Numbered from the stretch's first letter, positions 6,254-44,757 are shown. The stretch is 57,064 nt of DNA from Minisyncoccota bacterium (GCA_036171775.1 JAVHRR010000003.1:1-57064); one strand, 5' to 3'. Numbers and translations are program-made. The notes: generated by a model not told the origin, from the letters alone.

Positions 6254-6305
6254 AAGCCCATTTTATCATACTTTATGCAGGTCTCGAATGATTATTATAA
6301 ATTAA

Positions 6306-20941: not shown

Positions 20942-21024
20942 TGGTGTAAATTATAAATTGATTTCCTGCTTAAAAGAAATTTTTTATTGTGAATAAGTTG
21001 TGTACAACTAGTGGACAAGGAAGT

Positions 21025-21194
21025 TAAAAAAGTAAAATGAAAAATGAAAAAATATAATCACAAACTATAAATAAAATTCATCAATCATTATAACCGAAAC
21101 AGAAGATAAAAAGACTTGTATTTTCTATCGATTTGGGTTATATTGCATTGTAAGTGAATGAGATTGTTTATTTTACTTTTTTCATTTTACTTTT
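21025..21194. repeat. family D inverted-repeat unit (AAAGTAAAATGAAAAATG termini), ORF-less
   Basis: The left arm is aaaaaagtaaaatgaaaaatgaaaaaat and the right arm is ttattttacttttttcattttactttt. The unit ends 5 nt before the rpmH ATG. Confidence 0.65.
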
Positions 21195-21199
21195 AAATT

Positions 21200-21366: not shown

Positions 21367-21394
21367 GTTGAAATAACACCAAATAAGTATATAA

Positions 21395-21535
21395 TTAACC
21401 CGTTAAAGTTTTTACAGACGTTATTGAAGGTTTTTCTGATAAACATTAATTTATATATTTAAATTTGTTTATAATTTAAAAAGAAGAGTTTTTAAAACAA
21501 TAACACCTTTATCAGTAAAAATTTTCTCGGGTAAA
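21395..21535 (+). mobile_element. family E MITE-like unit (TTAACCCGTTAAAG ... CTCGGGTAAA)
   Basis: Imperfect terminal inverted repeats ttaacccgttaaagttttt and aaaattttctcgggtaaa. Two more copies lie at 40849-40996 and 44583-44722. This copy ends 2 nt before the rnpA ATG. Confidence 0.7.
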
Positions 21536-21537
21536 CC

Positions 21538-23248: not shown

Positions 23249-24496
23249 CTACTGAACGAGTTTTAACAACCACAAACTTAAGTCTGATTTGTTTGAAAAG
23301 GACAAGTATTGGTCATCCAGACTTATTTTTAAATCGAAAGCATCTATAGTCACACTTTTATTTGATCCGATTTTGTATATTTCCTCCATAGCACCAGTCT
23401 CTGTGTTTATTTTCCAAATATTATCACTAAACGATACTAAACCTTGGTACCAAACATCAGGATAATTACCTGTCAAAACTGTTTGTGGTATTGCACAATA
23501 CAAAACCTTGCTATTACTATTTCCCCACACACATTTATCTGCCAAGGTTGTTATGTTCAAACCAGAGCTTATTTTGTTTATCGCACTGTAAACATCAAGA
23601 GAAAAAGATCCATTAATACTAGAAGAATATGCCACAAGACTCGCATCTTTGTTTGTTACGGTAGATAAACCGGTTATATTTCCAAGAATTCTATCAAAAG
23701 CATAGTTTTGTGTGTTAAAGAAATACAACAAACCCGCGTCCATATAACTAGGTTTTGTTGTGAAAGTTACAATATTATCTTTTGGCCATGAAATGTTCCA
23801 ATAAGAAATCGGAGAATCAAAAATTGTTTTTTTACTACTACCATCTAGGTTTGTGGTGTAGCCATATGTTCCAGACTTATCACTTTTATCTACGATAGAA
23901 AAAACTTTATCCCCTTTTGGATTTATAGCTAGTTGTTTGGTATTTAATGACAAGAATGAGCCTGTTAACTCCTGGGGTACGTTTAATATAGTTTGATCAA
24001 GTAATATTTTTGCAGAAAAACTACTTATATTGTCGGTGTTATTTTCTAAATATCTTAAAACTAGATTATCACCAGTATTTGACCAAACAGCCTCTTGTAT
24101 TTTGGGAACAGTTGTATTTGTAATTCTTTTTGGTGATCCTGTGAGACTTTCTGTTTCGTATTCATATGTATGGCCAACTGCTCTATCTGTAAACCTAATA
24201 ATGTTTTGACCACTACCATTTAAAAAGAAAACAGATCCAGAAGTTGGACTTCTATAAAGCTGAACAAGTTCTGAAAGATTTTTTGTCTCCGCAGGGATCT
24301 CTCCAGTCGGTGTTGTTTGTGTGCCGGTCGTAGGGGGAGGTTTGTTTCCAGAAGCGGTTCCAAAAGGGCTTGTCGTCGACGTAGTAACTGGCGGAGCGGT
24401 TGTAGTTTTACCTGAAAACAAATAGAAAAATAATAAACCACCTATTATAAGTGCTACAGATACTAATATTATAATAATTATATTTTTTCTAGACAT
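23249..24496 (-). CDS. membrane-anchored hypothetical protein, last gene of the T4SS-like locus
   Basis: 415 aa with an N-terminal TM (IIIIILVSVALIIGGLLFFYLF), a Thr/Pro-rich linker and a beta-rich ectodomain. No family recognised. Confidence 0.55.
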   Translation of the reverse strand: MSRKNIIIIILVSVALIIGGLLFFYLFSGKTTTAPPVTTSTTSPFGTASGNKPPPTTGTQTTPTGEIPAETKNLSELVQLYRSPTSGSVFFLNGSGQNIIRFTDRAVGHTYEYETESLTGSPKRITNTTVPKIQEAVWSNTGDNLVLRYLENNTDNISSFSAKILLDQTILNVPQELTGSFLSLNTKQLAINPKGDKVFSIVDKSDKSGTYGYTTNLDGSSKKTIFDSPISYWNISWPKDNIVTFTTKPSYMDAGLLYFFNTQNYAFDRILGNITGLSTVTNKDASLVAYSSSINGSFSLDVYSAINKISSGLNITTLADKCVWGNSNSKVLYCAIPQTVLTGNYPDVWYQGLVSFSDNIWKINTETGAMEEIYKIGSNKSVTIDAFDLKISLDDQYLSFSNKSDLSLWLLKLVQ

Positions 24497-24503
24497 TTTT
24501 ATA

Positions 24504-24890
24504 CTAGTTTAATAGAGTATTGTTTGAAAAATCAACCAACGCAGGATTTATTGTATAAAGTATTAACCAAGATATAAGGGCTATTCCCAAACCTTCTAAT
24601 GCACTTAATATTTTAGTCTTACCCTCGTCCTTCCCCATCCAAGAATCGGTTGTCATGTACAATACACCACCCCAAATTATCATCACCAAAGATAGAGCAA
24701 CAGCAACCGCAATACCAAAACTAAAAATATAGCTCAAATATACAGTAAGGGATGAAGGAGACACAGTTACTCCCGGAAAAGCGTTTCCCTCCAAAGGAAC
24801 ATATTGAACAGCAAGTGCTGACGTTGCAAATAACATAATAAACATTGATAAACTCACAGCTAATATTTTTTTAAAGTTTGATTTTTTCAT
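24504..24890 (-). CDS. small two-helix membrane protein, VirB2/TrbC pilin-like
   Basis: 128 aa with a signal peptide (MFIMLFATSALA) and two long hydrophobic helices. Its size and locus context fit a T4SS pilin. Confidence 0.5.
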   Translation of the reverse strand: MKKSNFKKILAVSLSMFIMLFATSALAVQYVPLEGNAFPGVTVSPSSLTVYLSYIFSFGIAVAVALSLVMIIWGGVLYMTTDSWMGKDEGKTKILSALEGLGIALISWLILYTINPALVDFSNNTLLN

Positions 24891-24904
24891 AAAATTTTAA
24901 TATA

Positions 24905-25912
24905 TTATTCACCAAATAGTACACTGAAACCACCACTTGCATATTGATTTATTTTATTAATGTTTTTTAAATCAAGTGATATAGACGCAATTCCTTTTTG
25001 TGTGGTTGTCGCTTGTCTCATTATTATTTCATTTGTTTTTCCTGCTGGCGATACATAACCGTCATTTACATACCAGGAATAATCAGAATTTTGAGATGAG
25101 TCTGTAAGAAAATCAAAAGAAAAAGGTTTTGCAACAATACTTAACTCCTCTTTATTCCCAAGGAAATAGTCTCCAAAAATAGCTTTGTTGTACAATATAC
25201 CGTACAAAGGACTGTTTTCAAAAAACAATATTTTCGGATCATTTTTTACAATTAATTTAGATGTCTCTACCAAGATGTTGCCAGACTCATCTGTAATTTG
25301 GACAGCAACATTGATATCTCTTATAGGAATAATACTATTTACAACAATCGAGTTTTGTCCTTTCCCGGAATTATCAGCTAAAACATTATTATCTCTAGAC
25401 CAAGTAAAATTTAAATTCTTAGCGGGTATTTTTATACCACTAACCATTATATCTGGTAGAGCGATGATTTTAACTTTACCTTCAGCCACAAAATACGGTT
25501 TGCCTTTATAAAAAGGAAGAGTATAAGACATCGGCTCTATTACAAGGTCTATTCCAGCTAAAGACAGATCTTTAGATGTTTCTTTTATTATTCCATCTGA
25601 AGTTCCAACAACAACCCTAACATTTATCTTTTCATCAGTGTTTTTTGTTTTTATTACGATACTCTTACTCGTACTTTCTCTTCTAACGACACCATCTACA
25701 TACCAAACAATTTTTGACGAGCTTAAATCTAATAATTCACTTGAAACAGTAAAAACAACACTATCGCCAGCTCGTGGAGAGGATGGTGAAAAGCTCAAAT
25801 TAACTGATGAAATAGAATTAGAAACAGATTCTTGGGCCACAACAACACCAATAGAATAAAAAGCTATTAGTATCAGAGAGAGCTGAATTGATTTTTTTAA
25901 TAAACCTGACAT
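24905..25912 (-). CDS. secreted hypothetical protein in the T4SS-like locus
   Basis: 335 aa with a signal/anchor segment and a beta-rich sequence. No family recognised. Confidence 0.5.
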   Translation of the reverse strand: MSGLLKKSIQLSLILIAFYSIGVVVAQESVSNSISSVNLSFSPSSPRAGDSVVFTVSSELLDLSSSKIVWYVDGVVRRESTSKSIVIKTKNTDEKINVRVVVGTSDGIIKETSKDLSLAGIDLVIEPMSYTLPFYKGKPYFVAEGKVKIIALPDIMVSGIKIPAKNLNFTWSRDNNVLADNSGKGQNSIVVNSIIPIRDINVAVQITDESGNILVETSKLIVKNDPKILFFENSPLYGILYNKAIFGDYFLGNKEELSIVAKPFSFDFLTDSSQNSDYSWYVNDGYVSPAGKTNEIIMRQATTTQKGIASISLDLKNINKINQYASGGFSVLFGE

Positions 25913-25936
25913 CTTGATATAAATTATAACATAACT

Positions 25937-26015
25937 AGGTTGTAGTCGGTAGCTTCTTGGCTTCTTAGAAAATTAATACTTTATTTTAGTTCCTAAAAAG
26001 CTACAAACTACCTCC
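25937..26015. repeat. family A intergenic palindrome inside the T4SS-like locus
   Basis: aggttgtagtcggtagcttcttggcttcttagaa ... ttcctaaaaagctacaaactacctcc. Confidence 0.65.
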
Positions 26016-26026
26016 TACCACCTGTG

Positions 26027-27844
26027 TTACAGTCCCTGCGTCATTTTTAACTCCTCTTTTGCTTTTTTAATATTAAACAATTGTGATGGATCTGAAGTAA
26101 TAATCTGGTCTTCCGTATATGAGGCAATGATTTTGATAGCCACGTGTTTTAAACCCACAAAGAACATTCCCTCCCCCACATTTGATTCCAAAAGAAGGTA
26201 TTTTTCTTCATCAGTTAGGTTGAATACTTTTTGAAGATTATCAACAACGGTTGGAGACTGCTTCAAGAGTATCAACATTGAAGAGTTTGTAACGATAGGA
26301 AGTCCATAAGGAGATTTTAAGAAGTCCTCCACATCTTGAGTAATCGTGGAAAGGCCCAAGAAGTATTTTCGTCCCCTTTTTGCCATTGAGAACAAGAAAG
26401 AAGCAGCGTCATCTGACTTCATCATAATCCAAGCCTCATCCACCACCAAAAGTCTCTTCTTTTTATTTCTTTTTACAGCATTCCATATATAGTGGGTGAT
26501 AATATACATCGCAACTGTTTTTAACTCCTCTTCCATATCACGAATTGAAAATACAATAAATTTGTAGTTAATATTTATGTTTGTTGGTTTGTTTAGGAAA
26601 CCCGCCCAAGTACCTCTTGTATATTTTGAAAGTCTTTGGACGATAGACTCTGCCCCTTTCATTCCCGCAAGAACAAGTTCAAAGTCAGAAAGTAGAGGCG
26701 GTTCAACATTTGAAAAATCTGAGTCTGGAGTAATGTCTTTAAGTGCATAAGTCTCAGAAATAGCACGATCTATAATCGCATCTTCCTCAGGGGTAAGTCC
26801 ACCAAGCATGATTCTGAAAAGACCCACAAGGTTTATAATATTGCTTCTTAAAACATCCGCAGGTGACTCATCTTCTCCTGGCACAGGAAGATCGAAAGGA
26901 TTGATGTGGCTCGTTGAGTTTAGAGAAATATTGAAAGACTTCCCTCCTGTCGCCTCTGCTAACGCAGCGTATTCATTTTCAGGGTCAATAACCATAACGT
27001 CAATATCAAACATAAGGCTTCTTAGGATTTCTAGTTTTGTACAATAAGATTTACCAGAACCAGCCTTTGCAAAAGTAACCGAACTGTAATTTTCTAAAGA
27101 AAATCTATCAAAAATGACCAAGCTGGCATTGTGTCTGTTTATACCGTAAAGAATACCTTTGTCAGATGTAAGGTCAAAAGAAACAAAAGGAAAAATACTA
27201 GACAATGGTGAAGAGTTGAGCTTAGAGTGTACTTCCAAAAGGTCCGTTTCTATAGGAAGAATGCTCTTGAAACCTTGTTCTTGTTGGAAAAGAGCTGGTT
27301 TTACATATATCATTTTAGACTCTAGGATTGATTTGATTTCTGACTCTATTTTGTCCAACTCATTTTCAGTGTCGCCATATAAAGTGATATAAAGACCGAC
27401 ATCAAACAGCTTTTCTTGGGCTTGCATTAGACTGTCGCGCAAAGATTCTAGGTCTTGAGATGCGGTATCAAGCATCGGATCTCTCACGAGCCCTTTCTTT
27501 GTTCTTTCATTTATTTGGCTTTGTACTTCAGCTACCTTTTTTTGAAATTGTTTTAAAACCTTAGCTGTATCTACAGGGTGTATAAATATTGAAATATTAA
27601 AAACTTTATCAAGGTTTATTACAGGAGAAAACCAACTTTCTGTTAAATAACGAGGGTATGAAATAACAAAAAACGTTCTAACAATTTTTTCTCCAAGATT
27701 TAGCTGCTTGGGTGATATTTTTAATGCAGATGGCGCAATAATATCTTGCAACTCCAAAACACCAGCCTCATATATTTCTTGTGGCAAGAATGATGTAAGT
27801 TGTTCCTCTTTCTTTTTTGGTTTTAAAAAATCCAGTAATGACAT
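26027..27844 (-). CDS. VirB4/TrbE-like type IV secretion ATPase
   Basis: 605 aa with Walker A FAKAGSGKSY and Walker B RLLVVDEAW. The overall layout is a VirB4-type N-domain plus a C-terminal ATPase. Confidence 0.8.
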   Translation of the reverse strand: MSLLDFLKPKKKEEQLTSFLPQEIYEAGVLELQDIIAPSALKISPKQLNLGEKIVRTFFVISYPRYLTESWFSPVINLDKVFNISIFIHPVDTAKVLKQFQKKVAEVQSQINERTKKGLVRDPMLDTASQDLESLRDSLMQAQEKLFDVGLYITLYGDTENELDKIESEIKSILESKMIYVKPALFQQEQGFKSILPIETDLLEVHSKLNSSPLSSIFPFVSFDLTSDKGILYGINRHNASLVIFDRFSLENYSSVTFAKAGSGKSYCTKLEILRSLMFDIDVMVIDPENEYAALAEATGGKSFNISLNSTSHINPFDLPVPGEDESPADVLRSNIINLVGLFRIMLGGLTPEEDAIIDRAISETYALKDITPDSDFSNVEPPLLSDFELVLAGMKGAESIVQRLSKYTRGTWAGFLNKPTNININYKFIVFSIRDMEEELKTVAMYIITHYIWNAVKRNKKKRLLVVDEAWIMMKSDDAASFLFSMAKRGRKYFLGLSTITQDVEDFLKSPYGLPIVTNSSMLILLKQSPTVVDNLQKVFNLTDEEKYLLLESNVGEGMFFVGLKHVAIKIIASYTEDQIITSDPSQLFNIKKAKEELKMTQGL

Positions 27845-27858
27845 AATGTTATAAATTT

Positions 27859-27955
27859 AAAGATAAAAATGAAAAATGTAAAATTATAAACGCATTCTTT
27901 TGAATTAAATTTTCTATTTTGAATTTTATTTTTGATCTTTTCATTTTACTTTTTT
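27859..27955. repeat. family D inverted-repeat unit, ORF-less
   Basis: The arms are aaagataaaaatgaaaaatgtaaaatt and aattttatttttgatcttttcattttactttttt. The right arm overlaps the stop codon of the 27954-28586 ORF. Confidence 0.65.
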
Positions 27956-28586
27956 AATTTGGAATAATTGGTTTCTCCATATCTCCAGGGTTAAATATTT
28001 TATAGAATAATTCTACAATTTCCTCTGTTCCAAGCTGTGCCGTTCTAATACCACATCTAGATAAACCTTGTGAAATTGTGCCAATTCTCTGCTCCATTTG
28101 CGTTCTATTTTCATCAAAATGGTTTTTGTTTCCCGTGTTTACTTGAGGTGATCCACCTAATAGTTGACCAAAAGCACTTGAAGATTGCGAACCTGAGGTT
28201 GATGGAGAAAATGGTATTACTATAAAAAATGTTTTAGTCATTATACTTGTTTGCTCAACAAAGTTTTTCACAAACTGAATGTATTCTTTAATTTGTATTT
28301 TCATAAGATCCCCTACCTCATTTTTGTATCTTCCCTCCAACGTAGCCAAATATGGGCGAATATCTAATTCTCTAGATTGAATAGATATTTGAATAGAAAA
28401 ATCCAAACCGTTCAAGAAATTTTGGAACTGCATTATAATACCCTGCTGTTCATCTACAGACTTTAAAGCAAAGTTTACAGAAGAAGCCATAACAACAGAT
28501 CTCATTGAGCCGTCTTTTAATATGACAATTCCGTCACGTATTTCTTTTATTGGAACAAATTCTTGTGTGGCTTTAGATATGGGCAT
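27954..28586 (-). CDS. hypothetical protein in the T4SS-like locus
   Basis: A 210-aa ORF immediately upstream of the VirB4-like gene on the same strand. No family recognised. Confidence 0.5.
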   Translation of the reverse strand: MPISKATQEFVPIKEIRDGIVILKDGSMRSVVMASSVNFALKSVDEQQGIIMQFQNFLNGLDFSIQISIQSRELDIRPYLATLEGRYKNEVGDLMKIQIKEYIQFVKNFVEQTSIMTKTFFIVIPFSPSTSGSQSSSAFGQLLGGSPQVNTGNKNHFDENRTQMEQRIGTISQGLSRCGIRTAQLGTEEIVELFYKIFNPGDMEKPIIPN

Positions 28587-28591
28587 AATTC

Positions 28592-29062
28592 AAATGTAAA
28601 AAGTAAAGAGAAAAGTGAAAAAATAAAATTATAAAATTAAAAATAACAAATCACCTCTTCCCTCTCAGTGTAATTATACTAGATCCAAGGATATTTGCTA
28701 ATTCCACAGCTTCTTTTCTTAGTGAATCGACATCCTGACCTGCAGCTTTACCAGAATCAATCAATATCCCAAGCCAAAAAACTGTTTCATTTGCTGACTT
28801 TAAAGCGTGACTTATAAAATTTGTAAAATCTTTTTTACTGCTTCCTGCTTGTGCTTCTATGATATTAGCTCCAATACTAGTCGCGCTTCTTATTAGTTGT
28901 TTAGCTATTACTTCCGAAGACAAACCGTTTTTTATTATTATATCTATAAGTTTTATAATATTTAAGGCAAAAAAATAACTTCTTTTTTTGATATCATGTT
29001 TGTTAATATTATTTATCATTTATTTTTTAACTTTAAACTTTATTTTTACTTTTTACTCTTTT
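28592..29062. mobile_element. family D inverted repeats carrying a four-helix-bundle gene
   Basis: The left arm is aaatgtaaaaagtaaagagaaaagtgaaaaaataaaatt and the right arm is ttaaactttatttttactttttactctttt. The single ORF 28651-29019 lies between them. Confidence 0.6.
28651..29019 (-). CDS. four-helix-bundle protein (23S rRNA intervening-sequence protein / Avd-like family)
   Basis: 122 aa with the family pattern LIRSATSIGANIIEAQAGSSKKDF...ALKSANETVFWL. Confidence 0.75.
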   Translation of the reverse strand: MINNINKHDIKKRSYFFALNIIKLIDIIIKNGLSSEVIAKQLIRSATSIGANIIEAQAGSSKKDFTNFISHALKSANETVFWLGILIDSGKAAGQDVDSLRKEAVELANILGSSIITLRGKR

Positions 29063-29495
29063 ATTTTTGATCTTCCCTTGTTAGTGGATTTAAACTTTCT
29101 TTTATGTCCAAACTCCAAGTCAAATCCTTCAGCTTACTCCCTGACATTTTAGGAACCGAAACCAAAGATTTTGCCTTTTGTAGTTGATCAACAAGCTCGG
29201 TGGCAGGTTTCTTTTCTGTTTTTTTCCACAAATACAACTTATCGCCCAACATGTAGTAAAAAAAGGCTTGAACCACATCCACAAAGGGTTTATCATTTAT
29301 TCTGTAGAAAGTAAGTGCCAATGAAAAAGCGACAATTGGAATTATAATAAGTATTGCAATAAATTTATATGGAATATACATATAAAGAGCTATTGCTGCA
29401 CCCGCACCACCAGCCATATATAAAAACTGTTTCAAGGTAAATGGCCCGAAAATCTTATCCTCGACTTCTATAAATTGTGGTACTTGGAATTGCAT
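29061..29495 (-). CDS. PrgI family (VirB3-like) membrane protein
   Basis: The N-terminus MQFQVPQFIEVEDKIFGPFTLKQFLY is followed by two TM helices. I recall this as the hallmark of PrgI-family T4SS proteins. Confidence 0.6.
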   Translation of the reverse strand: MQFQVPQFIEVEDKIFGPFTLKQFLYMAGGAGAAIALYMYIPYKFIAILIIIPIVAFSLALTFYRINDKPFVDVVQAFFYYMLGDKLYLWKKTEKKPATELVDQLQKAKSLVSVPKMSGSKLKDLTWSLDIKESLNPLTREDQK

Positions 29496-29504
29496 ATTTT
29501 TAAC

Positions 29505-29583
29505 AGGTTATAGGCCGTAGCTTTTTAGCTTTTTAGGAAATGCATTAATTGTATTTCCTAAGAAGCTAATAAGCTACAAGCTA
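29505..29583. repeat. family A intergenic palindrome inside the T4SS-like locus
   Basis: aggttataggccgtagctttttagctttttaggaa ... ttcctaagaagctaataagctacaagctag. Confidence 0.65.
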
Positions 29584-29587
29584 GTTT

Positions 29588-30343
29588 TTAAATTACCGCT
29601 TCTCTATATGGATCACCTGAAAGTTTGTTCTTTTCAGGTAATTTTGTATCCATTTTAATCACTACTGTTTCTTTTGGTAATACTACAGGGGTGTTTAGTT
29701 TGTCTGTCACACTGCTAACGGGTGAAATATTCTTGTGAAAATAAGGTGGCTTTGGAACCACGGACGAAACTACAGGTAAGATTGCTGCAGGATTGATTTG
29801 TTCAGGAAGAATATCAGGCCTTACTTCAACTATACTATTTGAGGTAAACTTCGGCATTTCTATGCCAACATTGTTTGATTTTAAAGAACTAATAGAAATA
29901 GATTGCTCATTTTCTTTTATATTTTCTGGGTGTTCTATTCCCTCGAGGACCTCTTCTTTCGTAGGCTCCTTTTCAAAAGCTTGGACTTTTTCTGTTTCAG
30001 CAATAATTTTATCTTCTTCTAGTATTTGGTCATTTATTTGCTTCAAAGCTTCTCTGATGTTTTTGAATATCAATTCATTTACATCATGAGCTACTAATGA
30101 TGCCTGTGCGCTTGATAAGCCAACATTTACCACAAGATTTCCTAAATATTTGTTCATGGGTTCTATCCCAGCCATTACCAATGTTGTTTCGGCCTCAAGC
30201 TTCCCTGCTTGGTCTATCATCAACTTGTTGTTTTTTACAACTTCCTGCAATTTCTTAGGATAGTCAATAGAATAGATAGCCTGTTTTAATTCAGGTGGTA
30301 GTGTTTCTATATAATCTTTGAAATCTTTGTCGTTGTCTTGCAT
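29588..30343 (-). CDS. hypothetical protein in the T4SS-like locus
   Basis: 251 aa with no signal peptide, a helical N-half and a Pro/Val-rich C-half. Confidence 0.5.
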   Translation of the reverse strand: MQDNDKDFKDYIETLPPELKQAIYSIDYPKKLQEVVKNNKLMIDQAGKLEAETTLVMAGIEPMNKYLGNLVVNVGLSSAQASLVAHDVNELIFKNIREALKQINDQILEEDKIIAETEKVQAFEKEPTKEEVLEGIEHPENIKENEQSISISSLKSNNVGIEMPKFTSNSIVEVRPDILPEQINPAAILPVVSSVVPKPPYFHKNISPVSSVTDKLNTPVVLPKETVVIKMDTKLPEKNKLSGDPYREAVI

Positions 30344-30360
30344 AATTTTAATAATCTATG

Positions 30361-33249
30361 TTATTTGCTGTCTTCTTTCATTTGCTTAGCCACCTTTTTT
30401 GCTAATTCATCGGCAGCTTTTTCTTCCTTGGCTTTATCCTTGTCTGATTGGCTTGTACCCATTTCGGCAGCCCGTGCAATCTCGGCGTTTTCTGGTGTAA
30501 AGTTAGCACTAAGGAATTTATTTCTTATATATTTAGCATAGTTCGCTTTGGTATTCTTGCTTTCTTGAATTGTTTCTATTGTTGAACTAGATAATCCCCC
30601 CCTTAGGTTTGGTCTAACATAACCAAAAGTTGCTTTGTTTACCGCTCCAGATATTCCACCTCCAACAAAATCAGCCATCTTATCAAGTCCTTCCAAAGCA
30701 AAATTTTTCTTACTTAAATCATCTTTTATTTTACTAAGTTTATTGTCTAATTCTTTTATATCATTATTTATTTCAGCTGCTTTTGTCTGTTCTTCAGTTT
30801 TTGTTTTTATGTCGTCATCTAATTTTGCAGATTCTTTTCTGGCGATAACAAGTTCTTTTTCAATTTTATCTTTTTCAAATGTTGTTAGTGCCTTTTGCTT
30901 ATCAGCTTCAAGTTTTTGTTGCAGAGCTATATTTGCCAATTTATCAGCTTCAAGTTTTTTCTTCTCATTGTCGAGCTTCTGCATATTTTTATCAGATTCC
31001 TTGAAATTTTCTCCAGTGCCAGCAGCCTGAAGTTTCTTCATTGCCTCTTTTGGATTGTTTTGAAGAGTTTGTCTTTGTGATTTAATTGCATCCAATTTCT
31101 TTGACAAAGTTTTGGCTTCGGTGACCTCACCATTTCTTGTTGCATCCTCAATTTGCTTTTCTAATTTTATTTCTTCTTGTTTAAATCTTTCCACTATTTC
31201 TCTATCAACAACTCTCTTTTCATAATCACCCGCCGCACCTTCAAAAGCCTCAGCTTGTTTAACAGCATCTTTTTTCTGCTTATCCATCAAGCCAGAGAAC
31301 CCTGTTTGTCCTTTCCCGTATTCTCCACTCGCTTTCAAGTAACTCTTGTCTATGATACCACCACCAATACCGCTAATTGTTCCTGCCTGTCCGAGCACCT
31401 CTTTCAAAGCGGTTGTATTTCTCATATCAAATGTGCCAGTCGATGCGCTCTTTAGTGTTCCAAGTGTTGCTTTTGCTATATTGCCGCCGATAAAGCTTCC
31501 TGAAGCAGCAGCGTTGCTGAGCCTTTGTCCATATTTGCTGTTTGCGAGTGCGTTTGCTCCTCTTCCTGCTACCTGTCTTGCAACAAGAGCTGTTCCTCCA
31601 GTAGCCGCGCCAAGAGCTAGACCTGTTCCTACCTGCGCTATTTTGTCTACAAAGTTGCCCATAGGACCACTCAAACTCTTTGTTAGACTGACTGATTTTA
31701 GAAGAAGATAAACAACAAGGAAGAAATTAAAGAATACCATCATAGGACCAGTCGATGCTTGCTTAGCAAGAATTTGAGAAAGTCGGATAGTTAACAACAT
31801 AAAAAACATAATAGCTGGAGCAATCAAAACTTGATCCTGAAGGCTTTTACGCCAAGCTGTAGAAAATGTACCGATTCCAGGAATAACTTCACCAACAAAA
31901 CCAATAGGAGAAGTGGCCATAAGCACCACCAACATCACAAACCTACCTATAAGAAGTGCAGAAAGGGCGAAAAATACAAAAGTGGTTATTAAAAACAAAA
32001 CCAACCTAGTAAATGCGTTTAATAAGCCAGAGACACCAACAATACTTGCTGCTGAAGTGGCGGTGTTGTTGTTTTTAGTACTATCATAAATAGTTGTAAG
32101 ATTTAAACCATCCATAATCATTCCGCTCAAATCAATATTTGTGATTGCCCCAGAAGAACCTCCAACGGCTTTTAATAAGCCTTGTGTTTTAGAAGTAGAT
32201 TCGTCAGTTACCGTTTGTATCTGATTGTATATTGAAGTTGCTACAAGATTGCTAGCGTCTATGACAACTCTAGTTATAAAAAAACTAAAATTAATTAGAA
32301 CAGCAGAAATAATTATGGACATCAAAATCTTTTGTGCCGCCACCCCAGTAACTATCTGCTTAATGGCAGCATATAGAAGTATGAAAATAAATGTAATGTT
32401 TGCTGTGTCTCTAAGTAAAACCCAAACGGTTTGAATAGAACCATTTAAATCTTTAGTAAAGCCAGTACCAAAAATAGTGAACTGCACAGAAAAATCCAAA
32501 ATACTACCCGCAACAGCCAAAAGAAATGAGGCGATTGGTATTGTAATGAACTCGAGAACGAAGGCTATAACACCGCCAGCTTGGTCAGCAGCAAATTGTG
32601 CAATCGAACCCACAGTACCAGCCAAACCTCCCCAAATAATATCCCACACAGTTGTTTGATTAACCTTTTCTCTTCCAATGGATGCATTGTATTCTTGAAG
32701 AGCGGTGTCATACTGGACGGCCAAAGCAGCAATATTTGCAGGCATACCCATTGAGGTAACTTCAGCTTGTGTATAGTTTGGAATATCTGTAGCAATATTA
32801 CCATGCTGATATTGCTTGTTATTTTCTGTTCCTGGCATAAATGCGTTATTATACCAAAGACCATCACCTTTATAGGTAAAATCACCCGTGCTTATCGTCC
32901 CAGTTAAATCTTCTTTGTATTTAACTGACCAAGTGGGTGGAATCGGTGCTTTTGACGCTTGAGATATTGAACATTGGCGAGTTAAAGAGGTCAAAGGAAC
33001 AACAGTACATCCAGCAGGTACTGTAGACAATACAGCACAGTTTGCGAAGCTTGAGCCACCCGGACTAGTGTTACATGTCGTACTCCAACTTGCGCAACCG
33101 CACGATGCAGCTTGAACGACAGAGATATTAAAGGAGAAAAAACCAACCAATATAATTATGGTAGATAAAATAAATGCAACAGATTTTTTTGTAAAAAATC
33201 TTTTCGTCCTGTAGTGAAATTTTGACTTGTTAAATTTTTTGTTTTCCAT
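30361..33249 (-). CDS. VirB6/TrbL-like polytopic membrane protein with a Cys-rich ectodomain and a long K/E-rich coiled-coil tail
   Basis: 962 aa with an N-terminal anchor, a Cys-rich segment (ASCGCASWSTTCNT...), at least 6 TM helices in residues ~215-540, a Gly/Ala-rich tract and a charged tail of about 330 aa. The first 15 codons lie inside the GIY-YIG element. Confidence 0.6.
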   Translation of the reverse strand: MENKKFNKSKFHYRTKRFFTKKSVAFILSTIIILVGFFSFNISVVQAASCGCASWSTTCNTSPGGSSFANCAVLSTVPAGCTVVPLTSLTRQCSISQASKAPIPPTWSVKYKEDLTGTISTGDFTYKGDGLWYNNAFMPGTENNKQYQHGNIATDIPNYTQAEVTSMGMPANIAALAVQYDTALQEYNASIGREKVNQTTVWDIIWGGLAGTVGSIAQFAADQAGGVIAFVLEFITIPIASFLLAVAGSILDFSVQFTIFGTGFTKDLNGSIQTVWVLLRDTANITFIFILLYAAIKQIVTGVAAQKILMSIIISAVLINFSFFITRVVIDASNLVATSIYNQIQTVTDESTSKTQGLLKAVGGSSGAITNIDLSGMIMDGLNLTTIYDSTKNNNTATSAASIVGVSGLLNAFTRLVLFLITTFVFFALSALLIGRFVMLVVLMATSPIGFVGEVIPGIGTFSTAWRKSLQDQVLIAPAIMFFMLLTIRLSQILAKQASTGPMMVFFNFFLVVYLLLKSVSLTKSLSGPMGNFVDKIAQVGTGLALGAATGGTALVARQVAGRGANALANSKYGQRLSNAAASGSFIGGNIAKATLGTLKSASTGTFDMRNTTALKEVLGQAGTISGIGGGIIDKSYLKASGEYGKGQTGFSGLMDKQKKDAVKQAEAFEGAAGDYEKRVVDREIVERFKQEEIKLEKQIEDATRNGEVTEAKTLSKKLDAIKSQRQTLQNNPKEAMKKLQAAGTGENFKESDKNMQKLDNEKKKLEADKLANIALQQKLEADKQKALTTFEKDKIEKELVIARKESAKLDDDIKTKTEEQTKAAEINNDIKELDNKLSKIKDDLSKKNFALEGLDKMADFVGGGISGAVNKATFGYVRPNLRGGLSSSTIETIQESKNTKANYAKYIRNKFLSANFTPENAEIARAAEMGTSQSDKDKAKEEKAADELAKKVAKQMKEDSK

Positions 33250-33527
33250 ATAGATAACACCGCAACCTCCTCTTTAACAATCTACCTCCCTATGTTGTTT
33301 TTAAATATCGCTCGCGTCTTACAGCGTCTTCTTTATTTAAGCAACTTTCGTAATATATTATTTTCCAAGGTTTGTACCGTTTTGTGGAAAAATTTAAACC
33401 AAGATTATGTTCTTTAAAGCGTTTTTTGAGATCTGACGTAAAACCTGTGTACAACTCATTATTCTTCACACTTTGTAATATATAGTTGTAGAACATAATC
33501 GAGTCAAAATTCTACTACGGGATTCAT
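33203..33527 (-). mobile_element. GTAG-core inverted-repeat unit carrying a GIY-YIG nuclease ORF
   Basis: Termini are ttcgtcctgtagtgaaattttgactt (33203-33228) and agtcaaaattctactacgggattcat (33502-33527). The interior is filled almost entirely by the GIY-YIG reading frame. Confidence 0.7.
33230..33496 (-). pseudogene. GIY-YIG nuclease family (COG2827/UPF0213-like) ORF with an in-frame TAG
   Basis: The 68-aa ORF contains FYNYIL, LYTGFTSDLKKRFKEHN and RRERYLKTT. After the TAG at 33290-33292 the same frame continues as GGRLLKRRLRCYLYGKQKI to a TAA at 33230-33232. That restores the usual family length of about 88 aa and the YLKTxxGxxxLKxRL tail. Confidence 0.7.
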
Positions 33528-33640
33528 TAGACTAACAAATTATAACACTTGCAATAAATTAAATAAAGGCAAATGGGTGTTTATTATTATATTTTTGTAA
33601 TGTCTCTAAAATTGTAAAAAAAATAAATGAACAAACTAAA

Positions 33641-33675
33641 AAAGAAGGGTTTTCGCTCTGCGAAAACCCTTCTTT
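33641..33675 (-). terminator. terminator after the 837-aa repeat protein gene
   Basis: Hairpin aaagaagggttttcg / cgaaaacccttcttt. It splits the secretion locus into at least two transcription units. Confidence 0.65.
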
Positions 33676-33708
33676 CTTAGTTTGTTTTAAGACTCCTTCC
33701 CCACTATC

Positions 33709-36222
33709 TTAGTAAGAAGTACTTGCTGGTGTAGATATTTGCAACACTTTAGTCAAATCTATCGGACAAATAAGAGAATTGTATATGTTTTGTACACCAG
33801 TAAACCAAGTTTTGATGTTTGAAACGGTTTTTGCTTGGACATCTATGTTGAATGAAGTTGAATTTACCTGAATCATCGCATCTTTTACTGCAGATATTGT
33901 ACTTGCAGCAGTAACAGCGCTTGCGGCTTTATTTAATATTAGGATATCTGCATTAGATTTATCCAAACCAAGCTGTAGTATCTTTAAGTTCCAAGGAATT
34001 GAAGCCAAAGTTCTTTCTGAGCTTGGTACTCCATCTATATTTGTAATAACATTTGCTCTTATAAGAAGAGATCTTAATGTTGCGTCATTTCTATTGTAAT
34101 TCATATTACAAACACTCGTTGAAGCAAAAACATTTCTACCCTGAGTAATCATATTTTGAGCAATTTTGTAATTGTTCTGATATGTAAGCTCGGATTTTAG
34201 CAAAGATCTTATAAGAGTATTTGCATTATTTTTGGCTTGACCAAGTGCATCAAATCCACCTCCAGAAACTGTTCCAGTAGTAGGAGCGGTAACATTATAT
34301 GTCCATGTGTTAGAAGTATTTGAATTATAACTCCACAAACTTGATGAATAAGGATTGTAAGTCCAAGCCGTTGGGAAGCCAGCGTTGTATTCCCATGATT
34401 TTGAAGTGGAATTGTAGCTCCATGGGGAAGAAGCGGAGCTAGGACCATAAACCCAAGGTGTATTTGTAGGCGAGGTTGGACTGTAATCATTAGGTGTCAA
34501 TTTTGAATTTACATCAAACACCCAAGGAGCATCAACAGCGTATGGAGCAGTTGAATTGCCAGGGTTGAAATTCCAAGTAGAAATCTTTTCAGCATTGTAT
34601 ACCCATGATTTTGTAGCCGCATCATAAGTCCATGGAGAAGATGTAGAGCTAGGGCCATAAATCCAAGGAGTATTGGTAGGAGAACTTAAATTATAATCCC
34701 ATGGTGTCAATTTAGAATTTGGATCATAAGTCCATGGCTCGGTATTTGTGTAAGGTGCCGTTGGATTTACTGGATTGTATGTCCATGGAGAAGAAGTGGA
34801 GTTTGGACCATATACCCATGCTGTAGCTATAGAAGAACCAGGATTATAATTCCAAGGAGTAAGTGAAGATGTCGGATCAAAAACCCAGGGAGTTGAAGGA
34901 GAATATGGTGCAGGAACATAAGAAGTGAATGAAGAGTTCCAGTCCCAATTTGTAGATCCGTATTTTATGGTTGGAAGGGTTGGAAGAGTAATTTTTGGAA
35001 AAGTTGTTGTTGGGTTACTCCAGTCTGTGTTATTCCAAGTTGCTTGTTCGTTATATATAGATGATAAGTCTGTGTTGGCATTATACATGGCCCCTGTCCA
35101 TGCTTCATCTAGAGAAGAAGTGTAAGCTGCATGGTCAGCAGGATTATTATCTAGCACACCTTTTTTTAGGTTATTTAATACTGTAGTCATTAATGCGTTT
35201 AGTACAGCATCTATACCATCAGACAAAGAAGCGCTCAGGGTTCCTTGTTTTATGCTCGTAACGGATTGCTCAGTGAGCATGCCGGTAATGGTGGAACCAG
35301 GAGTTTTTACAACACAGTTTTGTTTAGAAGTTATACCATCTTGATCAATTTGTTCTCTTGTAAATGGATATGGCGGTCTACTCCCAGGAGTGTCTGTATA
35401 TTCTGGAGATTTATCACCAGTCGGATTACCACTTGCATCATAATATGTATCTACACACCTGGTAAAAGTAAGTGCACCTTGACCAAAGTCCAACAATTTT
35501 AATTTTTCACCTGAGGCGGTAACGATACTGGCGTCTAGCTCACCTTTTGCAATAAGATATGCGCCGTTAGCAGTATTTTCAGGGCGAATAGTGTTTACAA
35601 GCCAAGCATTCCAACCTCCCCTGCTATTAAAATCGCTTCCATTTCTACTAAGTACGTTTATACCACCCAGAGAAACATTGGCGGTATCTACGGCGGTATT
35701 AAAGTTTCGTCCTATTGTACTGAGAGTACAACCAATTTTTTGTTTCAAACCAGCACCATAACCTAGTTGAAGCGCAAGCTTCACTTGAAGTTGGAAAGGC
35801 TCACAAAGAAAGTTTAGTCCATTGTCTGCAAAAAACTCTCCGAAGGCTTGGTCACCAACACCACCTGGACCTGTTAGGAACTTACCTATATTACTTACGT
35901 ATGCAGGATTACCATTCATACCACCTTTTATCCAAGACACAGTTGCTTGTGTTACATTATCTATAAATTTCTTTGCCAACATTCTTGCAGTGACTTTTGC
36001 ACTAGCCACAGCGAGCACTTGCAATTTATCCCATACTGTTTTTCCAACAGTTGCTGATGTGTGTGCCGGGTCGGTAACGAGTTGAGGTTTAACTGCATTT
36101 AGTAGAGAGTCAACTAGGGCACTTGTTATTTGGGGAGCAGAAAAAAACATCGAACTAAATAATAAAGCAAAAATAATTAGTATCAGCGGTATCTTTTGTA
36201 TGTGATTTTTTTGAAAATTCAT
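33709..36222 (-). CDS. large secreted protein with a Trp/Tyr/Asn/Pro/Ser-rich tandem-repeat region
   Basis: 837 aa with a signal/anchor (IPLILIIFALLFSSMFFSA). Residues ~395-645 carry about 20 PW[TVI]Y[ND]-type motifs arranged in a higher-order repeat of about 60 aa. Confidence 0.6.
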   Translation of the reverse strand: MNFQKNHIQKIPLILIIFALLFSSMFFSAPQITSALVDSLLNAVKPQLVTDPAHTSATVGKTVWDKLQVLAVASAKVTARMLAKKFIDNVTQATVSWIKGGMNGNPAYVSNIGKFLTGPGGVGDQAFGEFFADNGLNFLCEPFQLQVKLALQLGYGAGLKQKIGCTLSTIGRNFNTAVDTANVSLGGINVLSRNGSDFNSRGGWNAWLVNTIRPENTANGAYLIAKGELDASIVTASGEKLKLLDFGQGALTFTRCVDTYYDASGNPTGDKSPEYTDTPGSRPPYPFTREQIDQDGITSKQNCVVKTPGSTITGMLTEQSVTSIKQGTLSASLSDGIDAVLNALMTTVLNNLKKGVLDNNPADHAAYTSSLDEAWTGAMYNANTDLSSIYNEQATWNNTDWSNPTTTFPKITLPTLPTIKYGSTNWDWNSSFTSYVPAPYSPSTPWVFDPTSSLTPWNYNPGSSIATAWVYGPNSTSSPWTYNPVNPTAPYTNTEPWTYDPNSKLTPWDYNLSSPTNTPWIYGPSSTSSPWTYDAATKSWVYNAEKISTWNFNPGNSTAPYAVDAPWVFDVNSKLTPNDYSPTSPTNTPWVYGPSSASSPWSYNSTSKSWEYNAGFPTAWTYNPYSSSLWSYNSNTSNTWTYNVTAPTTGTVSGGGFDALGQAKNNANTLIRSLLKSELTYQNNYKIAQNMITQGRNVFASTSVCNMNYNRNDATLRSLLIRANVITNIDGVPSSERTLASIPWNLKILQLGLDKSNADILILNKAASAVTAASTISAVKDAMIQVNSTSFNIDVQAKTVSNIKTWFTGVQNIYNSLICPIDLTKVLQISTPASTSY

Positions 36223-36283
36223 TTTTTTTGTTTATTTGAAATCAAATCTCTTCTGTAGAGTCATTCTTACTTTTATTATATAA

Positions 36284-37261
36284 CTATCTTTGTATATTTA
36301 AAACACCATCAATTACAGATAAATTTGAAAGAAGGGTTTGAGTAGTATCATTGTATAATGTTAAGTTCGAAAAAAGTCCCAATGAATCTGGGCCAGAATT
36401 TACTATATCTTTCTCGATAGCTATTATTATTTCTAAATCATTTATAACCGATAAATGATAATTTATATCATAATAACCTATTGCAACGGGAACTGGCATT
36501 TTTATTAGGTTATTTACTATTGCTTGATACTTATCAATAAATTTTAAAATTTCTGTTTTTGCTGTTGCGCTACCGTCAATAAATGAATTGATTGCGTTTA
36601 AATCAGCCCCTATTATATTTGGAAGCTTACCTGTTTCCATGGAGTAGCTTCTTACATAATCAGTCATATTCTTATTTAAGTTTGTGTTGTCAGTCTTCAA
36701 CAAGTTCAAATCGGTACTTTTTGTTATTCCAGAATAGGCTCTGTTTGGTATTTCGCCCATGGCTTTTGAAATAACTAAATCTTGGCTACTTTGGTCCATA
36801 GTGCCACCCACTGGCTGAGAAGCAATAATATTAGACATCAAATTTCGTGAAAATTTTTCTATTTCATTTAATCTCTCGTATTCTTCTAGGGCTTTTTTAT
36901 TTTCTTCTATAATCGCTAGATCTATTTTGTCATTTGGCTCACCATTAGAAGTAGTGTTTGCTTTTAATGGATCTCTGTTTAAAGAAATTTCGTCGAAGTC
37001 AGATGTTCCGTCTCCATCAGTGTCTGTTTTTTTTGGGTCAGTACCATAAAGGCCTTCTTTCCAGTCTGGAAGACCGTCTTTATCAGAATCTATATTTATA
37101 AATGCAGGAACAGTGTCTGTAGCAGAAGCCAAATCATTATTTATATATTTTGTAGTACTTGGTTTCCAGTAGTTGAGCAGTATTGTCAAAAGAACAATTA
37201 CAATGGCTATAGCCAACGCATATAAAAAATTATTAGACGGAAAATATTTTCTATCTATCAT
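36284..37261 (-). CDS. membrane-anchored protein with thrombospondin type 3-like Ca-binding repeats; first gene of the locus
   Basis: 325 aa with an N-terminal TM and DSDKDGLPDWKEGLYGTDPKKTDTDGDGTSDFDE repeats. Confidence 0.55.
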   Translation of the reverse strand: MIDRKYFPSNNFLYALAIAIVIVLLTILLNYWKPSTTKYINNDLASATDTVPAFINIDSDKDGLPDWKEGLYGTDPKKTDTDGDGTSDFDEISLNRDPLKANTTSNGEPNDKIDLAIIEENKKALEEYERLNEIEKFSRNLMSNIIASQPVGGTMDQSSQDLVISKAMGEIPNRAYSGITKSTDLNLLKTDNTNLNKNMTDYVRSYSMETGKLPNIIGADLNAINSFIDGSATAKTEILKFIDKYQAIVNNLIKMPVPVAIGYYDINYHLSVINDLEIIIAIEKDIVNSGPDSLGLFSNLTLYNDTTQTLLSNLSVIDGVLNIQR

Positions 37262-37329: not shown

Positions 37330-38124
37330 TTATAACGACAACCTTTCTACAAGATGTTTCCAATCAGCAAGCTTTAAGTCTTCAGATCTTGATTTTGCAG
37401 GTATTTTTAAGTCGAGAAACACTTTTGGCAAATCATCTGTTCCATATTTTTCCTTTAAGTTTGCAATTAACATTTTTCTTTTGTGTGCAAAACCAATTTT
37501 TATCACTTCAAAAAACATTTCTTCCGTGATTTCTTGAAAAAAGTCTTTAGATATATTATCTATAAGCAAAATGGCAGAATCTACTTTTGGTTTTGGACTA
37601 AAATTTTCTTTGTCCACTTTCATTATCTTTTTTGCTATTCCATAAGCCTTCACACTAAGAGAAAGCAGACTTTCTTTTTCGTCACGGGCAATTATCCTGT
37701 CTGCAATTTCTTTTTGCACCATAATTACAAGTTTAGATGGCTGAATATGGCCAGACAAGAATTTTCTAAAAATTAGGCCTGTTATATAGTATGGAATGTT
37801 TGCTATCAGCTTATATTCTCCAGTTTTTAGGTTATTCCAAGCTAGGTCCAACTCTAAAATATCGCCATGAATAAGGTTAAATTTGCCACTTTCAACCTCT
37901 TTTGAGAACTTCTCATTTAGTAAGGCAATAAGACGGTCATCCTTTTCCACGGCCAAGACTTTTGAACCAGTTTCTAGTAGCTTTTCTGTAAGGGCGCCTT
38001 GTCCAGGACCAATTTCAAGAACCAAATCTTTTTCATTGATGTCCCCCGCTTTGATCATGGCCAAAAGAGCCGTTTTAGACTTTAAAAAGTTCTGCCCCAA
38101 TGATTTTTTTGCATGTATTTCCAT
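37330..38124 (-). CDS. rsmA: 16S rRNA (adenine1518/1519-N6)-dimethyltransferase
   Basis: KSLGQNFL and the SAM-binding EIGPGQGALT motif, with a PYYIT motif. Confidence 0.9.
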   Translation of the reverse strand: MEIHAKKSLGQNFLKSKTALLAMIKAGDINEKDLVLEIGPGQGALTEKLLETGSKVLAVEKDDRLIALLNEKFSKEVESGKFNLIHGDILELDLAWNNLKTGEYKLIANIPYYITGLIFRKFLSGHIQPSKLVIMVQKEIADRIIARDEKESLLSLSVKAYGIAKKIMKVDKENFSPKPKVDSAILLIDNISKDFFQEITEEMFFEVIKIGFAHKRKMLIANLKEKYGTDDLPKVFLDLKIPAKSRSEDLKLADWKHLVERLSL

Positions 38125-38142: not shown

Positions 38143-38703
38143 TTATTTTTTATCAACCAACTTTATACCCGTCTCATTCTCGATATATTTGGGAATTTCA
38201 TCTGCACGAATAATGTTTTTATCAGGGTATAACTTTTTAAGCTCATCTAAGATTGGATAATATGCACAGCTAATAACATATGCTCCAATATCAGAGACAA
38301 GCCCAATTTCATTCATGATATATTCTCTTTCTGTTTCTAATTTTCTTAAAAACAGTGGTTTTTTAAAATGTGAAAGTATAAAAATTCTTCCCTGGGTATA
38401 AGATCCATAACCACCGGCGAGCGGTGCGCTACTACCCTTGATTGTACTGTTATCTAATATATTAATAAAAGAAGCCAGATTCCCCAAACCAGCCCCCCTA
38501 GTGATGCCATGACCTATAAATTCTTTCTGGATTTCCTTAGGAATTAAGTCCAAAAATTTATCGATATTTGAGTTACCAAAATTTTCAAACGATGCCTCCA
38601 TTAATTCGTCGTGATATTTTTTATATAATTCTGTAGCTAGAGCAAGTGATTGTTCATACGGAACAAGGTGTTTTTCAGGTTCAATTTTAGACAAGTTTTC
38701 CAT
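38143..38703 (-). CDS. hypothetical protein
   Basis: A 186-aa ORF with good coding appearance. No family recognised. Confidence 0.5.
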   Translation of the reverse strand: MENLSKIEPEKHLVPYEQSLALATELYKKYHDELMEASFENFGNSNIDKFLDLIPKEIQKEFIGHGITRGAGLGNLASFINILDNSTIKGSSAPLAGGYGSYTQGRIFILSHFKKPLFLRKLETEREYIMNEIGLVSDIGAYVISCAYYPILDELKKLYPDKNIIRADEIPKYIENETGIKLVDKK

Positions 38704-44579: not shown

Positions 44580-44582
44580 ATG

Positions 44583-44722: not shown

Positions 44723-44757
44723 TTGTAACAAACTTCATTGATTAAACAAGCACACGA

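Follow-up and report, generated by a model that had tools for sequence, protein, structure and literature searches.

The stretch of DNA considered here, called the window throughout, comprises 57,064 nucleotides (nt) of a Minisyncoccota bacterium (GCA_036171775.1, JAVHRR010000003.1:1-57064), and all positions are counted from its first letter. Between positions 23249 and 37261 it carries 12 open reading frames (ORFs) of at least 68 amino acids (aa), all on the minus strand, ten of which form a conserved block that appears to encode a chromosomal type IV secretion system (T4SS). Its parts are a split VirB4 ATPase, a PrgI/VirB3 protein, an extended VirB6/PrgH-like protein and a VirB2-like pilin, together with five lineage-specific proteins (p325, p837, p335, p415 and p251, named here by their lengths), four of them predicted to be exported or anchored. 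No long ORF lies on the plus strand, where those overlapping the genes of the locus are short and spurious-looking. A first-pass annotation, made from the sequence alone, had placed every ORF of the locus on the minus strand, as is the case for all the long ones, and had counted eleven genes, a number that has to be revised to twelve: ten conserved genes and two insertions. In the direction of transcription these are p325, p837, a GIY-YIG ORF, the 962-aa VirB6-like protein (p962), p251, the PrgI-like protein, a 23S-rRNA-IVP ORF, p210, VirB4, p335, the pilin-like protein and p415 (Table 1).

The extent of the block is apparent from its relatives. One genome per GTDB species was scanned, which gave 544 loci with a VirB4 relative, and the best 80 of these 544 were compared, many of which are truncated where a contig ends. 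VirB4 identity at these 80 loci is 75-93%, and nearly all are labelled as Patescibacteria metagenome-assembled genomes (Paceibacterota, Taylorbacteria, Campbellbacteria, Wolfebacteria, Parcubacteria, or bins called "Saccharibacteria"). The first-pass annotation had proposed a comparison of synteny across Patescibacteria, and among the best 80 loci the block order does recur, dozens of related Paceibacteria genomes sharing the arrangement uvrD-ksgA-(p325-p837-VirB6-p251-PrgI-TrsD-VirB4-p335-pilin-p415)-jag-yidC-rnpA-rpmH-dnaA. As the 23S-rRNA-IVP and GIY-YIG ORFs are absent from the same position in relatives, we regard the block as ten genes with two private insertions. The TrsD-like p210 was found at all 80 loci (median identity 61%), the PrgI-like protein at 77 (median identity 53%), p335 at 77, the pilin at 68, p962 at 67, p837 at 65 and p415 at 63. 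The position of p325 holds a BLAST match at 16 of 52 informative loci and, at a further 33, an ORF whose length is 150 aa or more and mostly 270-410 aa, a total of 49 of 52; that of p251 is occupied, by a BLAST match or a positional equivalent, at 65 of 66 informative loci. Both p325 and p251 evolve fast, yet their position is kept.

The block lies beside the origin of replication. On the dnaA side it is flanked by the core genes dnaN, dnaA (19607-20941), rpmH, rnpA, yidC and jag, and on the other side by ksgA (37330-38124), a 186-aa ORF, uvrD, an M23/LysM peptidase gene and comM. The G+C content of the locus, 0.33-0.39, is the same as that of the remainder of the window. The locus does not bear the marks of a mobile element, given that the same neighbours are found in dozens of species, the G+C content is not deviant and no integrase lies at its boundary; the sole recombinase in the window is an XerC/D-like tyrosine recombinase (51769-52722), 14 kb from the block, with PNPase, S15 and other core genes in between. 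Among the ORFs of at least 100 aa in the 57-kb window, all of which were scanned with Pfam, no VirD4-type coupling protein (T4CP), relaxase, VirB11, VirB8, VirB9 or VirB10 was detected, in keeping with the first-pass annotation. The latter had also pointed out that a relaxase, T4CP and oriT adjacent in the full genome would make the locus an ordinary integrated conjugative element (ICE), and neither relaxase nor T4CP was found within the window. Because T4CP, relaxase and VirB11 are missing from these 57 kb and the flanks consist of housekeeping genes, we conclude that the block is most likely not an ICE.

Table 1. Features of the locus, listed in the direction of transcription (all on the minus strand).
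Feature	Position	Strand	Remarks
p325	36284-37261	-	first gene of block; 325 aa
p837	33709-36222	-	837 aa
Terminator-like hairpin	33636-33680	-	directly 3' of p837
Palindromic repeat element R1	33203-33527	-	insertion, GIY-YIG ORF in loop
GIY-YIG ORF, 68 aa	33290-33496	-	PF01541
VirB6/PrgH-like p962, 962 aa	30361-33249	-	remote homology
p251	29588-30343	-	251 aa
PrgI/VirB3-like, 144 aa	29061-29495	-	PF12666
23S-rRNA-IVP ORF, 122 aa	28651-29019	-	PF05635
TrsD-like p210	27954-28586	-	NCBIfam below cutoffs, and hhalign
VirB4-type ATPase, 605 aa	26027-27844	-	NF045971 above cutoff
p335	24905-25912	-	335 aa
VirB2-like pilin, 128 aa	24504-24890	-	PF18895 below cutoff
p415	23249-24496	-	415 aa

Core components of the secretion system

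The first-pass annotation had recognised four proteins, a VirB4-like ATPase, a PrgI/VirB3-like protein, a VirB6/TrbL-like polytopic protein and a VirB2-like protein with two helices, and had called for profile searches; in these, VirB4 and PrgI pass the curated thresholds, and all four assignments stand, that of the VirB6-like protein as remote homology only. VirB4 has the Walker A and Walker B motifs that had been noted (KAGSGKS and LLVVDEAW), scores 379.6 bits against NF045971, the model of the VirB4-like CD1110 family (cutoff 325), and also matches PF19044 (4.9e-22). Its closest relatives on plasmids, from Firmicutes and Actinobacteria, are no more than 35.5% identical to it. The alignment to NF045971 spans profile positions 172-733 of 752; as it begins only at position 172, the ATPase lacks the N-terminal domain. 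The separate p210, encoded just upstream, matches NF045975 (Mbov_0397 VirB4; 1.9e-10), NF045971 (residues 2-117; 9.5e-7) and the TrsD model NF041427 (2.2e-6), all below the curated cutoffs, and the profile of its family (about 60 orthologues) aligns in hhalign to residues 22-198 of a clostridial CD1110 VirB4 with a probability of 89% (E 2.2e-6). As this is the part of VirB4 missing from the 605-aa ATPase, we assign p210 by profile comparison as a TrsD-type protein, that is, a split-off, free-standing homologue of the VirB4 N-terminal domain, which probably acts in concert with that ATPase. The PrgI-like protein scores 39.1 bits against PF12666 (cutoff 27), and its family aligns to the PrgI proteins of pCF10 and pCDC3875 with hhalign E values of about 5e-4.

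The large protein p962 has seven to eight hydrophobic segments in a transmembrane and hydropathy scan, six cysteines within aa 50-93, and a tail (aa 641-962) in which 55 lysines, 36 glutamates and 24 aspartates occur among 322 residues, much as the first-pass annotation had described. The Cys-rich N-terminal region looks extracellular, and the tail looks like a coiled coil. On account of these two features p962 would be an "extended VirB6" in the sense of a recent review (PMC12857230). The protein itself has no direct Pfam or NCBIfam match, and its family profile returned nothing meaningful from PDB sequences, only coiled-coil noise or non-significant matches. Among 45 family members, four match TrbL (PF04610; best 1.6e-4) and six match channel families of monoderm ICEs and plasmids, namely Mbov_0396 (8.8e-7), CD3337/EF1877 and pLS20_p028. 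An AlphaFold2 (AF2) model of aa 180-650 (predicted local distance difference test, pLDDT, 75) was compared with the PDB by Foldseek, and the top six matches are all TrwI/VirB6 chains of R388 (E 8e-3, probability 1.0). The family also aligns to pCF10 PrgH (hhalign probability 77.6%, E 1.9e-5), and weakly to the CD1112 VirB6 (E 0.026, hhalign probability 0.3%). Four independent weak-to-moderate tests thus agree in placing p962 as a putative, remote relative of VirB6/PrgH. A precomputed flag for PF19590 on two of 44 VirB6 homologues was not reproduced by hmmscan and so was disregarded.

The 128-aa pilin-like protein consists of a signal-like segment and two hydrophobic helices, a topology that fits the earlier suggestion of a VirB2-like protein. 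Its own score against PF18895 (T4SS_pilin) is 19.6 bits, below the cutoff of 26.6, and its orthologue at locus L006 reaches 32.2 bits, above that cutoff; the protein also matches NF045849, the Mbov_0395 pilin-like family (5.5e-6). From topology and profile matches we assign it as a VirB2-like T4SS pilin.

The accessory proteins

The remaining block proteins (p415, p335, p210, p251, p837 and p325) had all been described in the first-pass annotation as secreted or anchored and as unassignable to families. By hydropathy scan, p325 (aa 11-29), p837 (aa 11-29), p335 (aa 8-26) and p415 (aa 6-24) each have a single N-terminal hydrophobic segment, for which reason they are predicted to be exported or anchored, as had been supposed. 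Neither p210 nor p251 has a hydrophobic segment, and both are therefore probably cytoplasmic. The earlier verdict on family membership likewise needs amending for p210, which is TrsD-like. The others show no link to the accessory proteins with which they were compared: hhalign of the p335, p415, p251, p325 and p837 families against pCF10 PrgB-PrgM, PcfA and PcfB and against the neighbours of VirB4 on pCDC3875 gave probabilities all below 6%, so that no equivalent of VirB8, VirB1, PrgF or PrgG was identified. Nor did hhalign link any family of the block to PrgK, PrgL or the SLT protein, the templates being single sequences, which limits sensitivity.

For three of the accessory proteins there are hints at the level of the fold. 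p325 contains thrombospondin type-3 repeats at about aa 57-102, followed by a fast-evolving C-terminal part; against PF18884 (TSP3_bac) it scores 22 bits (cutoff 25), and its orthologue at locus L034 scores 30.4, above the cutoff. These repeats hint at calcium binding. p335 may be made of tandem Ig-like beta-sandwich domains, as hinted by matches of its 46 relatives to Ig-type domains (BiPBP_C in seven, best 1e-5; Ig_3 in six; PKD_3 in four); the family profile found weak Ig-type matches among PDB sequences as well, non-significant at E >0.02. The distal domain of p415, which follows a Pro/Thr-rich linker after the N-terminal anchor, is probably a beta-propeller: its 46 relatives show five weak matches in all, to DPPIV_N, PD40, Peptidase_S9_N and DUF5050, and the family profile picks out TolB (6pnv) among PDB sequences at a non-significant E of 0.063. 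No family match was found for p251, in which only the first 110 aa or so are conserved.

The largest of these proteins, p837, has a modular architecture. A Cys-containing N-terminal domain (about aa 80-400; conserved columns W97, C140, C165 and T307-P-G) and a C-terminal helical bundle (aa 655-835) are conserved, and the centre between them is variable. In the window the centre (aa 444-645) is made of 17 W-x-Y/F repeats of about 11 aa, and in relatives it is an F5/8 type C domain, a galactose-binding, lectin domain, in four of 44 and an Ig-like domain in one of 44, which suggests a surface-exposed binding module that has been exchanged between lineages. Outside this variable centre neither the window protein nor 43 relatives have a Pfam match, and no precomputed Pfam domain is recorded for any of 42 database homologues. 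The AF2 model reaches a pLDDT above 94 for the C-terminal domain and 58.8 for the whole protein, and a Foldseek search of the PDB with it yielded no match, all E values being above 1; the family profile found coiled-coil noise or non-significant matches among PDB sequences. A VirB5-like reading of the C-terminal bundle was considered and is not supported, as nothing in the PDB was matched by Foldseek below E = 1. The family is widespread: a profile search of 1.84 billion representatives retrieved 5,627 clusters of 50% identity at E<=1e-3 and 2,832 at E<=1e-30.

Known systems and the likely role of the block

Machines of this kind have already been reported from the Patescibacteria, a group that accounts for much of the diversity of uncultured bacteria and whose members live attached to other microbes. 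In Southlakia epibionticum, an apparent T4SS encoded by SEML1_0006-0019 is essential for epibiotic growth by transposon insertion sequencing (Tn-seq; Wang 2023, PMC10633639); it is nearest to Gram-positive conjugative systems, its pilins are essential, and it has no recognisable coupling protein or relaxase (PMC10633639). The Patescibacteria T4SS is the first shown to be essential for its own bearer (FEMS review, PMC12857230). A survey of 3,035 Patescibacteria genomes found VirB4 in 2,417, with 2,407 in one clade inside MPF-FATA (Quinonero-Coronel 2025, PMC12102498). TrsD was the most abundant associated component, PrgI/VirB3, VirB6 and VirB2-like pilins were found nearby, relaxases occurred in 103 of the 3,035 genomes, and the neighbours of virB4 in Paceibacteria included dnaA, dnaN, ksgA, rnpA and rpmH (PMC12102498).

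The window reproduces the gene content and chromosomal position reported for the Patescibacteria-clade T4SS in these two studies (PMC10633639; PMC12102498): a VirB4 of MPF-FATA ancestry with TrsD, PrgI/VirB3, VirB6 and a VirB2-like pilin nearby, in a cluster without relaxase or coupling protein that lies on the chromosome near dnaA and, as in Paceibacteria, near ksgA and rnpA too. It differs in having a single minimal pilin gene instead of an array of 2-11 pilins, and the peptidase and lysozyme genes found beside virB4 in S. epibionticum are absent from the block. Since the same kind of system, with the relaxase likewise missing and dnaA and ksgA close by, was published for this phylum and class in 2023-2025, the novelty of the locus is low, and the window is best regarded as a clean, complete Paceibacteria example and not as a new kind of system. 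What is added here are the fold-level hints for p335, p415 and p325 and the modular p837 family; p325, p837, p335, p415 and p251 are neither named nor characterised in PMC10633639 or PMC12102498. All five accompany the core genes in the same order and, above all the widespread p837 family, are the obvious candidates for the part of the machine that contacts the host, and useful targets for structural work.

More distant likenesses are found among conjugation systems of monoderm bacteria. The order VirB6-VirB3-(one gene)-VirB4 is that of the CTn2/pCF10 type (PrgH-PrgI-PrgJ, and CD1112-PrgI-CD1110 on pCDC3875), and both the VirB4 score above the CD1110 cutoff and the alignment of the VirB6 family to PrgH point in the same direction. 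On pCDC3875 and pCF10, however, the core has VirD4, a relaxase and a large hydrolase of the cell wall alongside it, none of which was found in the block, nor were a T4CP (PcfC/CD1115), a PrgK/SLT-type hydrolase, a PrgL/VirB8-like protein or LPXTG adhesins detected there. Unlike the CTn2/pCF10 type, moreover, the block has a split VirB4 whose N-domain is a separate TrsD-like protein, a VirB2-like pilin, and a VirB6 about 3.5 times longer. A free-standing TrsD, homologous to the VirB4 N-terminus and encoded just upstream of VirB4, is known from the trs genes of pGO1/pSK41 (TrsC-TrsD-TrsE; PMC12102498). By the published description, VirB6 is not recognisable in the pGO1 subclass (PMC12102498). 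The trs genes, moreover, serve plasmid conjugation and come with a T4CP and a relaxase. The Mycoplasma ICE module (Mbov_0395, Mbov_0396 and Mbov_0397) is likewise monoderm and has a pilin-like protein; the pilin, VirB6 family members and VirB4/TrsD of the block match its NCBIfam models, all below threshold. In contrast to the block, these modules are parts of mobile elements with their own DNA-processing genes.

The best explanation is that the block descends from monoderm conjugation machinery of the MPF-FATA class and is now uncoupled from the genes for DNA transfer. We read it as a Patescibacteria chromosomal T4SS that acts as a host-interaction machine and is not used for conjugation, with a probability of roughly 0.7. 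The first-pass annotation had similarly held that this is no canonical conjugation module and could be a machine of a reduced-genome symbiont, a view that gene content, core-chromosome context and the published work (PMC10633639; PMC12102498) bear out. While the components, their conservation and their surroundings are shown directly, a mechanism can be sketched by analogy with established T4SS biology. A VirB4/TrsD hexamer would dock on PrgI and VirB6 at the cytoplasmic membrane, so that the split ATPase, PrgI and the extended VirB6 form a membrane platform, and would spend ATP on drawing the pilin out of the membrane and assembling it into a conduit or short pilus that spans the thin envelope of a monoderm cell. 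Its extracellular, host-facing part may be built or decorated by the modular p837, the putatively calcium-binding p325, the Ig-like p335 and the propeller-like p415, which may also bind the surface of the host cell. The task of such a machine during epibiotic growth would lie in contact with the host and in exchanging proteins or material derived from the host, not in plasmid conjugation. It is tempting to go further and speculate, with the odds leaning against it, that p325, p837, p335 and p415 together with the long VirB6 tail form an undescribed extracellular host-contact structure which stands in for the hydrolase, VirB8 and adhesin components of Gram-positive systems; p837 would then be the determinant of host specificity, an idea prompted by the swapping of its central module between lineages (W-x-Y repeats versus F5/8 lectin or Ig-like domains).

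Several points weigh against reading the block as a host-interaction T4SS. The VirB6 and pilin assignments of the window proteins lie below curated thresholds and are based on orthologues, profile-profile comparisons and fold matches, the last of which, to TrwI/VirB6, have low TM-scores (0.27/0.41). The roles of p335, p415, p325 and p837 are deduced from topology and weak fold hints. Neither a VirB1-like hydrolase nor a VirB8-like protein has a Pfam or NCBIfam match in the block. VirD4 homologues occur in most Patescibacteria genomes, mostly at a distance from virB4 (PMC12102498), and a T4CP could thus be encoded elsewhere. Essentiality was shown only for a Saccharibacterium (class Saccharimonadia), not for Paceibacteria. 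Finally, the pilin core of many relatives is followed by a coiled-coil-like C-terminal extension of 150-350 aa (for example L010:12884-14032, L029:13523-14956, L055:13473-14771 and L022:12843-13751), the window version being minimal; such an extension is unusual for a polymerising T4SS pilin and hard to square with a classical VirB2 pilus.

What the machine would move, if anything, is where the alternatives diverge, effector delivery and the uptake of DNA or nucleotides being the ideas raised in reviews (PMC11665869; PMC12857230). An uptake machine resembling Helicobacter ComB or archaeal Ced could import host DNA to feed a genome unable to make nucleotides, as suggested in PMC11665869, and would need no T4CP or relaxase, neither of which is present in the window. 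VirB4 does match the CedB model NF041017 (4.8e-9, 35 bits), but only over about 70 P-loop residues and far under the cutoff of 700, and no CedA or ComB6-10 components were found in the window. The first-pass annotation had linked the block to PilB (8820-10496) and ComM (42513-44075), which might likewise speak for uptake; both genes are indeed present, yet they are tied to the block only by co-occurrence in the window, lying 15-17 kb off with housekeeping genes between. Competence in S. epibionticum, furthermore, requires ComEC and is dispensable, whereas the T4SS is essential (PMC12857230; PMC11665869), and we consider uptake an unlikely function. Nor do we give much credence to the possibility that nothing passes through at all, VirB4 building a VirB2-type filament that attaches the cell to its host together with surface adhesins. 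The pilin gene inside the block, the several surface proteins with Ig-like, lectin or calcium-binding modules and the lack of a nearby T4CP to recruit substrates would suit such an adhesion pilus; the conservation of the extended VirB6 channel protein and the long coiled-coil tails on the pilins of relatives would not, and adhesion in Patescibacteria is already provided by type IV pili (PMC12102498; PMC11623550).

That the block is an ICE or its remnant, with relaxase, T4CP and oriT lying outside the window, seems very improbable. The CD1110 family, of which VirB4 is a member, occurs on ICEs and conjugative plasmids, the order VirB6-PrgI-(x)-VirB4 is that of pCDC3875 and pCF10, a tyrosine recombinase is present in the window and selfish ORFs have inserted in the block. 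However, the recombinase is XerC/D-like and separated from the block by core genes, in dozens of species the block is next to the same genes (ksgA, uvrD, jag, yidC and dnaA), its G+C content is not deviant, VirB4 is at most 35.5% identical to plasmid versions as against 75-93% within the lineage, and relaxases are as rare in Patescibacteria genomes as noted above (103/3,035; PMC12102498).

Insertions, repeats and other features of the window

The two private insertions are no part of the secretion system. The GIY-YIG ORF (PF01541, 2e-17) was found in relatives at two loci, at other positions. It sits in the palindromic element R1, one arm of which reaches into the VirB6-like gene and covers about its first 15 codons; the arms (CCCGTAGTAGAATTTCAA / TTGAAATTTCACTACCGG) are common to copies at about 6030-6255 and 8395-8680, and the copy at 6036-6256 would fold into a long hairpin (-60 kcal/mol, z = -5.6). 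R1 could represent a small mobile element that exists in one autonomous copy and several non-autonomous ones. The 23S-rRNA-IVP ORF (PF05635, a four-helix bundle family; 2.6e-20) was found at none of the 80 related loci and is bordered by A-rich R3 repeats (28586-28653 and 29019-29083). The hairpin directly 3' of p837 has a 20-pair stem with seven GC pairs, followed by a T-rich tail, its 27-nt arms being 96% complementary, and suggests that p325 and p837 are transcribed separately from the remainder of the block.

Three dispersed repeat families cross the locus, which the first-pass annotation had rightly described as invaded by three kinds of repeat element. Besides R1, there is an A-rich repeat (AAAAGTAAAATGAAAAATG and its inverse) at 21021-21062, 21162-21197, 27853-27960, 28586-28653 and 29019-29083, that is, in the stretch between dnaA and rpmH on the side of oriC, in the gap between trsD and virB4, and on both flanks of the IVP ORF. 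A repeat of about 55 nt ending in TTCCTAAGAAGCTAATAAGCTACAAGCTA occurs at 252-306, 2982-3036, 18180-18234, 29529-29583 and 44822-44876, with an inverted copy at 25931-25973. It contains a short hairpin and lies 0-10 nt past minus-strand stop codons (polA, dnaN, p251 and an ORF at 44885-45967); a role as a 3'-end or terminator-like element is conceivable. An Rfam scan of the window matched no family, the 55-nt repeat included.

Next to the block, the 186-aa ORF between ksgA and uvrD (38143-38703, minus strand) has no family match and no counterpart at any of the 80 related loci, and is probably another private insertion. The M23/LysM peptidase (41216-42385), which lies outside the block, was considered as a possible substitute for VirB1; it was found at six of the 80 loci, the fetched flanks being mostly too short to reach that far. 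Elsewhere in the window, the rpmH-rnpA intergenic region (21390-21536) is repeated in inverted orientation at 44582-44727, upstream of a DksA/TraR-type zinc-finger ORF (44220-44579), with arms of 77 nt at 82% and 46 nt at 87% complementarity. Beside PilB, a 403-aa ORF (7084-8295, minus strand) without a Pfam match contains six tandem 30-nt (10-aa) repeats at 7824-8023 and has copies of the palindromic element in its 5' region.

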